From a virus (Duplodnaviria; Caudoviricetes), in the IMG/VR virus record IMGVR_UViG_3300026975_000004, positions 1 through 39,057 of that record: a DNA stretch of 39,057 nt. The stretch is one strand, 5' to 3'. A model generated the notes under the pieces. That model was not told where the DNA came from, did not search any database, and saw only the letters and a program-made list of their open reading frames with translations. Positions 1 to 37,520 of the stretch are shown here, piece after piece (within the stretch, counting starts at the first letter, position 1; each line of letters opens with the position of its first letter). Position numbers and translations under genes: made by a program.

Positions 1-45
1 TTCCTAATCCATGTGCCGCAAGTTCGATTCTTGCCGGGGGCACCA
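1..45 (+). tRNA. 3' portion of tRNA-Arg(CCT), cut by the window edge; likely att core
   Basis: Anticodon loop TTCCTAA (1-7), T-arm GCAAG-TTCGATT-CTTGC (18-34), acceptor strand CGGGGGC-A-CCA ending at 45. Confidence 0.88.
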
Positions 46-8548: not shown

Positions 8549-8776
8549 TTGATGGAATGGACAAAGGAGATACCTACGCAGCCGGGGTATTACTGGTTGC
8601 AATACTACGATGATGGTCTGGGTGGGTATGAGCTTACTTTTGTTGCTCTTTATATTTTAAAAAAAGACGGAACCGCTGTCTATTTTATGCTCGGTTCTGA
8701 TGAAGAATGCGTGGCAGAGGAAGACGCTGTCGATGGTAAGTGGTTTGGTCCAATTGAGCCACCGGGTGAGAGTTAA
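8549..8776 (+). CDS. Hypothetical phage protein
   Basis: WTKEIPTQPGYYW...WFGPIEPP motif of small phage proteins; stop overlaps terL start. Confidence 0.65.
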   Translation: MMEWTKEIPTQPGYYWLQYYDDGLGGYELTFVALYILKKDGTAVYFMLGSDEECVAEEDAVDGKWFGPIEPPGES

Positions 8777-10763
8777 TGTACTTCTCCGCCGACACTATAT
8801 CCATCCCCGCCCGCTGGCGGCCTGTCGATTACGATATCGATGGCGAAATCACGCTGCGGCTGTATGCCGGCGAGAAAAAGCGGTTTCGCAAGCGGCCGCC
8901 CATCAAGGTCAGCGCCTGGGCCGAGCGGCACCGGGTGGTGGTCAAGAGCCGCACGCCCGGGCGCTGGCGCAATTCCACGGCGGCCTATCTGGCCGGCATC
9001 ATGGATGCAGCCGGTGAAAAGTGCGTGGAAACGGTGGGGATCTGCGCAGGGCCCCAGAGCGGCAAGACCGAGGCGGTCAATACTTTTATCGGCTACGCCA
9101 TCGACCGGGCGGCGGGTGATGTACTGATCGTCTACCCCAACGAAAACGACGCCAAGGAAAACAGCACCGACCGCATCCAACCGATGATCACCTCCAGCCG
9201 GCGGCTCAACAGCTACACCACCGGCTACGCCGACGACCTGGCCGGCACCCGGATCAAACTGGAGCACATGGTCATCTACCTAGGTTGGGCCACATCGGCC
9301 AGCCGCCTGGCCAACCGCCCCTGCCGCTACGTGGTGTTCGACGAAACGGACAAGTACCCGGAGACCACCAACAAGAAAGAGGCCGACCCCATCAGCCTGG
9401 GCAAGGCGCGTGCCATCACCTATCGCGGCCTGCGCAAGTATTTCCTGATTTCCACCCCCACCACCGAGGGGAATTACATCTGGCAGTACATCAGCAACGA
9501 GGCCAGCGCGGTTTTCGACTTCTGGGTGAAGTGCCCCGAGTGCGGCGGCTGGCAGAAGATGGCCTTTTCCGAAAAGGATTCCAGCGGCGCCACGGTCTAC
9601 CGCATCAAGGTGCCGGAGGGCGAGCGCGACGCTAACAAGATCCTGGAGCAGGACCTGGCCTGGTACGAGTGCGCCAAGTGCGGCGCCCATTGGGACGACG
9701 CCACCCGGGACCGGGCCGTGCGCGACGGCCAGTGGCGCGATCGCAAATACCAGCGCGAGCTATTCGCCTACCTGGCGGCCTTCAAGCCGAAATCCATCGG
9801 CTTTCACATTCCGGCCTGGATATCGCCGTTTGTTGGTCTGAGCGAGATCATGTCCGATTGGTTCAAGGCCCAGAACGACAAAACCAAACTGAAGGACTTC
9901 CAGAACAAACGGGCCGCCGAGCCGTGGCGGGCTTATGAGGTGGTCCGCAAGGGGGATGCGATTCTGAAGCTGCGGGGGATGCGATTCTGAAGCTGCGGGA
10001 TGATCGGCCGCGTACTCGAGTACCTGGCGGTGGAGAGGTTGCCTGCCTGACTGCCGGAGTGGATACCCAGGACGCGGGTTTTTGGTATTCGATCAGGGCA
10101 TGGGGTTGGGGTGGTGTCGAGCTGCTGAAGCCAAGCTGGTGCATCCGGGCCGGATACTGTCTGACGTTCGAAGAGCTGGCGCGGATTCTCTGGAGCGATC
10201 AGTACACGGATGCTGCTGGCCATGAATATGTTGTCCGCCTGACAGTGCAGGACCGCCTGGGCCATCGCACCCGGGAGGTGGACACGTTTTGCCTCAAGCA
10301 TCGCGGGAAGATTCTCCCGAGCCAGGGCAAGGATGTCATGGCCCAGCCGGTCACCTGGTCGACCATCGAATATTACGCCGGTACATCCAAGGCCATCCCG
10401 ACCGGTTTGAAGGCGGTGAACGTCAACACGAAATATTTCAAGGATGAACTCTCGCGCCTGCTGCTGATCGATGCCGGCGACCCGTCGGCGTTTCTCTTCT
10501 ATAATGATTTCCCGGAGGCCTACGCCGATCAGTACACGGTGGAATACCCCAATGAAAAGGGTTTGTGGGAATGCCCGAAAAACAAGGCCAACCACTTGTG
10601 GGACTGCGACGTTTTAAACCTGGTAGCGCATGAGCTTATGGGGGTTTACAAATGGCCGAAGCCGGAAACCCAACCCCAGGACGCACCGCCGCCCGAGGAT
10701 AAAGGCGGCGGGTGGATCAAGGCCGGCGGGTTGTCTGCCGGCGGTTGGATCAATAGGCGTTAA
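8776..10763 (+). pseudogene. Terminase large subunit (lambda GpA family), frameshifted by a 23-bp tandem duplication
   Basis: ATPase part with GPQSGKTE, VVFDETDKYP and ISTPT; nuclease part with LTAGVDTQD and NHLWDC; removing one repeat copy gives a single 654-aa frame. Confidence 0.93.
9951..9999 (+). repeat. Perfect tandem duplication of GGGGGATGCGATTCTGAAGCTGC (23 bp x2, plus GGG)
   Basis: Copies at 9951-9973 and 9974-9996. Confidence 0.97.
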
Positions 10764-29985: not shown

Positions 29986-30828
29986 ATGATCCCGGATCTG
30001 GACGATAAATTCATTAAATTCCGGCGGCACATGCTGGTCTATGACGGCCTGGCGACCACCTCGGCCGACAACCTGGCCCGGGTGGCGCGCAAGATCCTGA
30101 CCGACCTTGGCACGGCGGCGCCCACCATCGAGCAGGTGGAGATCTATATCGAGTCCCTGCGGGAGTCGGATTATTCGTGGAGCCACATCTGCAACCAGAT
30201 GCTGGCCATCGAGCGCTACATGCGTTTCATCGGCCAGCAGGTCAAGTTCGGTCGACCGCGCAAGCCCCGGCGGGTGGTGAGCAACACCCTTACCGAGGCG
30301 GAAGTGGCCATCCTGATCGACGCGGCCAGGGGCTCCCGCGAGCGGGCGCTGATGGCCATGCTGGCCTATGCCGTGCCCCGCAACCAGGAGCTGTGCGATT
30401 TGCGGGTGCGCCACGTGGATATCGCCAACCACGAGGTTTATATCGAGGACGGCAAGGGGGCTCGGGACCGGATTGCCTACATCCCCGGCGAGTGCGCCCG
30501 GATCCAGGCAGAGTATATCCACGATCACCGGTTGACCGCCGACATGATGCTTTTCAAGCCAACGCGGGGTGGCGAGCCCAAAATGCGGCCGCATGTTGTC
30601 CGGCGCACCGTCGCCCGGATTGCGGCCCGCACCAAAATCGAGAAGAAAATCTACCCGCACATCTTCCGGCACTCATGGGCCACCAACATGCTCAACCGCG
30701 GCGCCAACCCCCGCACGATCCAGGCGCAGCTGGGCCACAGTTTTCTGGAAACCACCATGCTCTACTTGGAGAACCGGCCGCGACACGTCAAGAACGAGTG
30801 CCAGATGTTCGCGCCGGCTTATATGTGA
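29986..30828 (+). CDS. Tyrosine recombinase (XerC/D-like)
   Basis: Complete catalytic set: R (PRNQE), K (GKG), HxxR (HIFRH), H (LGHS), Y (TMLY). Confidence 0.92.
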   Translation: MIPDLDDKFIKFRRHMLVYDGLATTSADNLARVARKILTDLGTAAPTIEQVEIYIESLRESDYSWSHICNQMLAIERYMRFIGQQVKFGRPRKPRRVVSNTLTEAEVAILIDAARGSRERALMAMLAYAVPRNQELCDLRVRHVDIANHEVYIEDGKGARDRIAYIPGECARIQAEYIHDHRLTADMMLFKPTRGGEPKMRPHVVRRTVARIAARTKIEKKIYPHIFRHSWATNMLNRGANPRTIQAQLGHSFLETTMLYLENRPRHVKNECQMFAPAYM

Positions 30829-35235: not shown

Positions 35236-35496
35236 ATGCAACAGCATTTTACCGGCGGTACCCATCATCACCATTACAACCTCACCCAGATGGAGCTTGA
35301 CCTGGAGACCAAGGAAACCTGCACCTTCCGCACGTATCCCAAACTGATCGCGCATATCGAAAAAAGGGCCAAAGCTGTGGGGGTGTCCAGGAGCAAGTTC
35401 ATCGAATCCGCCTTAATCAAGTTTTTTAAATCCGAATCGGCCATCAAAAAGTTTTATGCCGATCTGGATAACATCGTCACCGAAAATTTTTTATAG
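35236..35496 (+). CDS. Ribbon-helix-helix (CopG/Arc-like) protein in the cII position
   Basis: TCTFR...LIAHIEKRAKAVGVSRSKFIESAL; GGAGG RBS. Confidence 0.7.
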   Translation: MQQHFTGGTHHHHYNLTQMELDLETKETCTFRTYPKLIAHIEKRAKAVGVSRSKFIESALIKFFKSESAIKKFYADLDNIVTENFL

Positions 35497-36305: not shown

Positions 36306-36815
36306 ATGGCTAAAGAAGATCGTTTGGTGATCTACGAATACACCTGTGGCCACAAGGCCGGCAAACCGGTGCACACCAGCCGCATTGGCCGGGCCTGCCC
36401 GGTGTGCCGACAGGGGCGCATCAAGTGGATTTATAAGACCTGTGTGACCTGCGGGGCCATGATGTCGATGATGCCCGGCAGCAGTCAGCGTAAGTACTGC
36501 GACCGCTGCCAGCAGCGCCGGAACCGGGCCAACAGCTTTGTGAACAGTCGCAAGAAGCACTACACCCCCATGAGCCAGATCGACGTGGATGCTGTGCTGG
36601 AAGGCCGCGAAGAGCCCCACGCCGACCCCCTGGACATTGTTTTCGCCAAGTACGAGGCGGACCCGTTTTACCGTCCGCCGCGACCCAGTGAGCACCCGCC
36701 CGGCGCCGTGGCGGTAGTAACGGGCCCATCATGTTCCTCCTCCTGCAGTACCGCCGGGGCCCGGGGCGGCAATACCGGGCCAACCTCAACCCCCAAAAAG
36801 GAGAAAGCGGCATGA
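36306..36815 (+). CDS. Cys-rich zinc-finger protein
   Basis: CGH, CPVC, CVTC, CDRC; GGAGG RBS. Confidence 0.65.
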   Translation: MAKEDRLVIYEYTCGHKAGKPVHTSRIGRACPVCRQGRIKWIYKTCVTCGAMMSMMPGSSQRKYCDRCQQRRNRANSFVNSRKKHYTPMSQIDVDAVLEGREEPHADPLDIVFAKYEADPFYRPPRPSEHPPGAVAVVTGPSCSSSCSTAGARGGNTGPTSTPKKEKAA

Positions 36816-37051
36816 AAGCCAAAACAATCCATGACGCCATTAGCGGCGACATCGACAACCGTATCCGGCTGTGCCCCCATTGCTATCACGAGCAGGACCA
36901 GGACAAGGGCCGGGAATGCGAGTGGTGCGGCGGCGCCACAATGGTCTGCAACCACCAGATGGCCCTGGCCCTGAAGATCAACGCCGGGCATGAGGAGCGC
37001 ATGCGTCATGCAGAGCCCCTGCCGCACCTGCGAACACATCAACCGGTCTAA
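36812..37051 (+). CDS. Small zinc-ribbon protein
   Basis: CPHC...CEWCG; AAGGAG RBS, ATGA overlap. Confidence 0.6.
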   Translation: MKAKTIHDAISGDIDNRIRLCPHCYHEQDQDKGRECEWCGGATMVCNHQMALALKINAGHEERMRHAEPLPHLRTHQPV

Positions 37052-37520
37052 GAATCATCCGGACTGAATCAACTGCCCTGCCCGGCAGGCTGCCTGGGAC
37101 GGCACCGTGACACTGGAGGCCCCCGTGGAGAAAAGCGACAAACTGACCAAAGTCTGCACCGATCCTGACTGCCCCCACAAGGGCGAGCCCCAGCCGATCG
37201 AGCATTTCCGGCGGGCGCGGTATGGCCGCCTGGGGGTGTGCAATACCTGCATGAGCCGGCGGCAGTCGGTGGCCCAGAAATTATATCGGGAGAAGAAAGC
37301 CAAGGGGACGGTGAAGGAAAAACCCACGCCGCCTCCAGCCATGCCAGAAGCTCCGGCCGCACCGTCCAACGGTCACACCATCACCATCGATTTCAACGAA
37401 CGCCAGGACCTGCTGGCCAGCCTAAAGGAAAGGGCTGCCGGCCAGCTGCGCACCCCCGAAAATCAGGTGCTGTTCCTGGTGATGCAATTCTGTAACCAGC
37501 CGCCCGGAGTATGGGCGTAG
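37008..37520 (+). CDS. Cys-rich protein with in-frame TGA at codon 20 (candidate selenoprotein, otherwise nonsense pseudogene)
   Basis: MQSPCRTCEHINRSKNHPD*INCPARQAAWDGT runs in frame into the 37107-37520 ORF; GAGGAG RBS; hairpin 37074-37104. Confidence 0.65.

Follow-up and report, generated by a model that had tools for sequence, protein, structure and literature searches.

A candidate selenocysteine codon in a predicted regulatory gene of a temperate phage with likely Desulfobacterales hosts

Results

The prophage and its early operon

The window, that is, the whole stretch of 39,057 nucleotides analysed here, holds a 39-kb temperate phage with genes for terminase, portal, protease, tape measure, two HTH proteins, an excisionase and an integrase. 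The candidate gene lies in the early operon, with a cro-like gene on one side and the excisionase gene on the other (Table 1). The integrase is made complete by the locus L077 (349 aa), where the second attachment copy is also seen (L077:4300-4344); beyond the right end, L077 contains low-GC DNA with an orphan ORF of 316 aa. The large terminase subunit is split (8776-9990 and 10059-10763) by a frameshift that corresponds to an exact 23-nt tandem duplication at 9951-9996. The contig of one of the sequencing runs compared below, X1, has an offset of 38, equal to 15 + 23, which suggests that it does not carry the duplication, and the frameshift is probably an assembly artefact. Apart from it, the prophage is intact. 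The preliminary description of this DNA had considered, as an alternative, that the in-frame TGA of the candidate gene was a TGC-to-TGA nonsense mutation in a decaying prophage. Decay finds little support, since the integrase and both attachment copies are intact and the only frameshift is the one just described.

Other features of the window are a second tyrosine recombinase gene past the tail-fibre region (29986-30828, 280 aa), which could be an invertase or belong to an accessory element, and, in the same early operon as the candidate gene, a second gene that looks by eye like a ribbon-helix-helix (RHH) gene (35236-35496) and two further Cys-rich genes (36306-37051), all three having Cys codons.

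The GAGGAG ribosome-binding site, the ATG at 37008, the TGA at 37065-37067 and the 170-aa frame to 37520 reported in the preliminary description were all found in the sequence; with the TGA read through, the frame ends at a TAG (37518-37520). Database entries of the gene hold only the 131-aa fragment that begins at GTG 37125; a 284-kb contig also carries this protein. TGA terminates 17 of the 45 genes listed in the phage, several of them as ATGA overlaps, which points to the standard code and rules out a genome-wide reassignment of TGA (code 4/25). No RNA holder was listed for the sequence.

Table 1. Positions in the window of the attachment core and of the features of the candidate gene
Feature	Position	Strand	Remarks
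Attachment core	1..45	+	3' part of tRNA-Arg(CCT); L077 has another copy behind the integrase
Upstream 79-aa CxxC gene	36812..37051	+	Overlaps first 44 nt of candidate gene; overlap also in L002
Shine-Dalgarno GAGGAG	36992..36997	+	10 nt before ATG; Cys orthologues L002 and L078 have GAGGAG and the same ATG start
Gene of 170 aa with Cys4 knuckle, further Cys4 finger and ribbon-helix-helix domain	37008..37520	+	Codon 20 is an in-frame TGA; L002 and L078 share the gene order
N-terminal knuckle C5-x2-C8-x11-U20-x2-C23	37020..37076	+	Putative metal site; Cys conserved in homologues
In-frame TGA, candidate Sec codon	37065..37067	+	Unchanged in runs X1-X4 and in L077
SECIS-like hairpin	37074..37104	+	Upper stem 37084-87 with 37091-94; loop GGC 37088-90, at +21 to +23
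Internal start GGAGG-N5-GTG	37115..37127	+	GTG 37125; 131-aa form without knuckle; chosen by gene callers; similar site in Cys orthologues
Second Cys4 finger (C50, C55, C78, C81)	37155..37250	+	Like zinc module beside endonuclease VII/HNH proteins
Predicted ribbon-helix-helix DNA-binding domain	37368..37517	+	Model pLDDT 93; top fold rows RHH

Codon 20 is Cys in the homologues

Run against the fetched loci, a profile built on residues 1-40 gave 42 distinct knuckle matches. Of these, 37 are strong and have four Cys codons each, one is that of the window itself, with TGA, and four were weak and were dropped. All 37 distinct DNA homologues (E<1e-8) have Cys at the position of codon 20, in agreement with the earlier claim that the TGA stands where a Cys is expected. 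In 13 aligned rows P4, C5, C8, K15, C20 and C23 are invariant, the window's TGA being counted as C, and the protein homologues start at the window's Met and continue with HPDCxxC. The first 40 residues share 75-78% identity with L002 and L078, two Cys orthologues in conserved gene order, with homology on both sides of the UGA. An internal stop was absent from all 53 matches at E<=0.001 in 401 Desulfobacterales genomes. The family is present in 15 of 401 genomes of the class and 54 of 401 of the order, with five weak matches in 401 phylum-wide genomes.

No second TGA lineage was found in viral, metagenome or genome contigs, in GenBank phages, or among genomes of the class (401), the order (401), the phylum (401) and the family (65). 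The five loci in metagenome contigs were two identical to the window, two with Cys and one spurious. Of four weak order-level TGA matches (E>0.001), three were fetched together with one further weak match, and in none of those fetched did the TGA stand at a knuckle Cys.

The TGA is unlikely to be an error and its frame is likely maintained

Positions 37065-67 are unchanged in the contigs of all four runs compared (X1-X4), which come from three studies; the TGA is thereby confirmed in further data and a sequencing error is unlikely. X1 is possibly the window's own source, and X2, from another study, is identical to the window. In X3 and X4, from the third study, 9 and 3 of 136 nt differ, so that TGA-bearing variants are 2-7% diverged, and gaps are absent from the five listed pieces over the gene (about 92% or more alike); X3 has a further record that is 86% alike. 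Six of the eight listed changes of X3 are synonymous, against 21-27% expected (P 0.002-0.006) and one of eight in each of the other two forward frames; the remaining two make up a single residue change, S14D, toward the family consensus. This bias suggests that the frame was likely still under selection after the TGA arose. Five of the eight changes lie within 12 nt and may be a tract brought in by recombination, in which case the selection test would no longer hold. X3 agrees with the Cys relatives at four sites; unless it acquired these letters by recombination, the four changes took place on the branch of the window, later than the TGA that both copies share. In both X3 and X4 the change C37103A breaks a lower-stem pair of the hairpin described below.

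The hairpin downstream of the UGA

The SECIS-like hairpin proposed in the preliminary description is there in fold, in position and in its loop Gs at +21-22, but it is not diagnostic of Sec, because the Cys orthologue L002 has a stronger one at the same place. The window's hairpin (loop of 3 nt, upper stem of 4 bp, spacing of 20, -15.3 kcal/mol) is the minimum-energy fold of the 40-50 nt downstream of the UGA; competing structures win in folds of at least 55 nt, and the pairing probability of the upper stem ranges from 0.17 to 0.89 with the length folded. It is not more stable than shuffled sequences (z -0.2 to +0.7 and, in another run, -0.57 and -0.32), and the host SECIS elements have a mean z of -0.5, with 3 of 27 below -2. 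These 27 reference Sec contexts come from three families in five genomes and are not independent; two of an initial 29 were on the wrong strand and were dropped. Host upper stems have 4-8 bp, mostly 5-7. The host SelD loop is GGA at +21-23 and one MvhD/FlpD loop is GGC at +21-23, the same place as the GGC of the window.

Our hairpin rules were devised after the data were seen. The strict one, with GG at the loop start, passed 24 of 27 host elements, none of the 37 Cys homologues, none of the 17 TGA stops of the phage, 23 of the 956 TGAs in the window and about 2% of synonymous recodings. It was judged too kind, since a stronger hairpin, with an AGGC loop, is formed by L002, which has Cys. A looser rule (G[G/U] in the loop, G allowed second, stable stem) passed 24/27 host elements, 2/37 Cys homologues including the closest one, and 22/956 window TGAs. 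Eight other window TGAs pass the strict rule, six of them on the + strand out of frame with their genes. The bacterial SECIS model set out in the available part of PMC13188914 has a loop of 3-9 nt, a stem of at least 4 bp, G in the first two loop positions, a spacing of 16-37 nt and an MFE <= -7.5. The window's hairpin falls within this model, which is permissive: 11-16% of the window TGAs do so too (139 of 955 in one count), as do 6 of the 37 Cys homologues. Rfam gave no SECIS match.

In L002, the closest Cys orthologue (L002:3068-3096), the hairpin reaches -21.3 kcal/mol (z -2.75) and has its AGGC loop at +20-23. Where close Cys relatives have SECIS-like folds, these have been interpreted either as pre-adaptation or as remnant (PMC13582414, in part), and both readings fit L002. 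Another locus, L079, has a strong hairpin at the same place (z -4.1) with no G in the loop. An origin of the hairpin through changes specific to the lineage was rejected, as L002 already has it and W30 also occurs in the Cys homologue P0025. The short stem, the competing folds and the lower pair lost in X3 and X4 make the window's hairpin compatible with SelB binding rather than proof of it. The preliminary description had named as contrary evidence a TGA unique to this genome together with an equal hairpin in Cys homologues: there is indeed a single TGA lineage, yet it is found in diverged copies, whereas the L002 hairpin does weigh on that side.

Modules of the protein

In the C-terminal RHH region the fold matches were PutA52 (Z 6.4, rmsd 1.8, 44 aligned), Arc (Z 5.3), HP0222, AmrZ and NikR; the Z values are middling, but nearly all top rows are RHH proteins, and Pfam RHH_5 was found in 4 of 20 family members. 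The second finger matches residues 57-106 of Hpy99I weakly in fold (Z 3.4). Matches to phrog_1035 occur in 8 of 12 family rows, the window protein itself having none. The whole-protein model (pLDDT 80, pTM 0.44) had no clear fold match, and no curated family in Pfam, PHROGs or NCBIfam covers the whole protein; PDB sequence searches were uninformative, and the Atlas gave only matches under 0.9 for the Cys orthologue. The knuckle is modular, as several family members do not have it. Cys4 knuckles also occur as stand-alone ORFs of ~55-75 aa in Desulfobacterales chromosomes (L183, L195, L196, L198; L184, L189, L203), with a PPDK_N-family gene on one side and a phosphate ABC permease gene on the other, or next to a radical SAM gene.

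From these models, the protein is likely a transcription regulator with structural metal sites, in which Sec would serve as a metal ligand and not in a redox enzyme. The CxxC...UxxC motif of the preliminary description is present, but probably not as a redox motif, since the four Cys look like a structural metal knuckle in an RHH regulator. The further idea of that description, that the gene could tie phage decisions to selenium or redox status, gained no support from any of these analyses.

Candidate hosts and their UGA-decoding machinery

The attachment core (window 1-45) had 69 matching stretches, with labels mostly of Desulfobacterales or deltaproteobacteria, and the host is likely a sulfate-reducing bacterium of the Desulfobacterales. 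Deltaproteobacteria are described as rich in selenoproteins in the part of PMC5029168 available. As candidate hosts, 50 att-matching genomes were analysed. selA was present in 49 of the 50 and tRNA-Sec scored above the cut-off in 43, while selB, Sec-type selD and Sec-type fdhA were found in five of five. The selA/selB/selC/selD machinery on which the preliminary reading depends therefore occurs in the candidate host group, these figures being those of att-matched genomes as stand-ins for the actual host.

One of the genomes, G003, has a selC*-selB*-cysS* cassette with a UCA anticodon (L214:1859-5367), and at least 7 of the 50 candidate hosts have selC*-like tRNAs with this anticodon (nine second-tier matches inspected). 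Six of the seven selC* genomes also have canonical tRNA-Sec, and most candidate hosts have only the canonical one. tRNAs similar to that of G003 were seen in G236, G520, G294, G111, G431 and G066, and G532 (L256) has an unusual UCA tRNA. According to portions of the respective papers, selC*-type tRNAs decode UGA as Cys, with the cassette described in PMC5389517, and this decoding occurs with a SECIS present (PMC13582414).

Discussion

Taken together, the comparisons make it probable, to our judgement, that the host's SelB and tRNA-Sec decode the UGA at codon 20 as selenocysteine. The phage Sec protein put forward in the preliminary description is thus the best reading, from the invariant Cys, the kept TGA, the synonymous bias, the Sec-using host group and the loop geometry, although it is confined to a single lineage. 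A ribosome starting at 37008 would reach the UGA, where SelB would bind the GGC loop 20 nt downstream and deliver Sec, which would take the place of Cys as third ligand of the structural metal site; selenium would need to bring no new chemistry. As to its origin, the G-G loop hairpin may already have been present in the Cys-coding clade, so that a one-base change from TGC to TGA could be read at once and be tolerated. The internal GTG may in addition give a shorter form without the knuckle. It is distinctly unlikely that an inefficient, selenium-dependent codon and the internal start jointly determine how much full-length regulator is made relative to the knuckle-less form, so that host selenium would tune phage expression, with Sec as a structural zinc ligand.

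The TGA could instead be a real stop that removed the knuckle, a finger-plus-RHH protein being made from GTG 37125 and the allele tolerated. The perfect GGAGG 5 nt ahead of this GTG, which gene callers use, is in line with such a product, as is a knuckle missing from several family members; a tolerated stop would also account for the single TGA lineage, and it takes one change from TGC to TGA in a family where a Cys orthologue has the hairpin too. We regard this as unlikely, because codons 9-32 would then be dead DNA, and yet 6/8 changes between TGA-bearing copies are synonymous. Moreover, the three remaining Cys have been kept, together with the Shine-Dalgarno and the ATG, and the stem has re-formed in a new register despite eight positions (+1 to +37) unlike both close Cys relatives.

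Selection on the frame would also be accounted for by a low level of SECIS-independent readthrough, for example with Trp, in which the stop would act as an attenuator. Regulators are needed in small amounts, which would suit a leaky stop. However, a residue other than Cys or Sec would spoil an invariant metal ligand, and the stop sits precisely at a Cys codon and is followed by a G-G loop at the spacing of the host elements, making this the least probable of the readings considered. A structural metal site would be satisfied by Cys, and the cassette of G003 and the selC*-like tRNAs in at least 7/50 candidate hosts show the means at hand: host selC*, SelB* and CysRS* might insert Cys at the UGA, giving a full-length protein that would be no selenoprotein, or only partly one. 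With canonical tRNA-Sec alone in most candidate hosts, and beside selC* in six of the seven others, Cys insertion seems highly improbable. We thus retain decoding as Sec as the preferred explanation.

If this is true, phages that infect Sec-rich anaerobes make use of host recoding, Sec can occupy a non-catalytic metal site of a regulator, and gene callers shorten such genes, as in the 131-aa fragment catalogued here. The Cys orthologue with a SECIS-like hairpin would be a natural pair to the phage gene for testing how Cys-to-Sec conversion begins. In the open literature, subscription papers and supplements being outside its scope, no report of a bacteriophage selenoprotein was found; the accessible part of 10.1101/2022.07.06.499078 describes none in phages, and no similar family stands in the selenoprotein table of PMC13188914 (part 1 of 3), the words 'phage' and 'virus' having 0 occurrences each in the text of that paper as available. 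An excerpt of PMC6769590 gives two poxvirus proteins as the sole viral selenoproteins proven by 2019.

The poxvirus glutathione peroxidases, found in molluscum contagiosum virus and in fowlpox virus, resemble the present case as virus genes that rely on the Sec insertion of the host, but they are host-derived peroxidases with a eukaryotic SECIS. Among bacteria, fdhF of E. coli is the prototype of an in-ORF SECIS read by SelB. Like fdhF and the Desulfobacterales genes selD, mvhD/flpD and fdhA, the phage gene has its UGA at a conserved Cys, Cys homologues, a 3-nt loop with G-G lying 20 nt downstream, and a Sec-using host group. Unlike them, it is a phage gene for a non-enzymatic regulator, with the putative Sec at an apparent structural metal ligand, a shorter stem and one lineage. 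The selC* (tRNA-ReC) recoding of Desulfobacterales, available in some candidate hosts, shares the same UGA-plus-SECIS signal, but inserts Cys. With respect to the protein, the C-terminal strand-helix-helix fold is that of RHH regulators such as Arc, PutA52, AmrZ, NikR and the CopG-like RHH_5, whereas here the RHH domain follows two Cys4 modules. The gene is thus a credible single-lineage candidate for a variant of bacterial Sec recoding.
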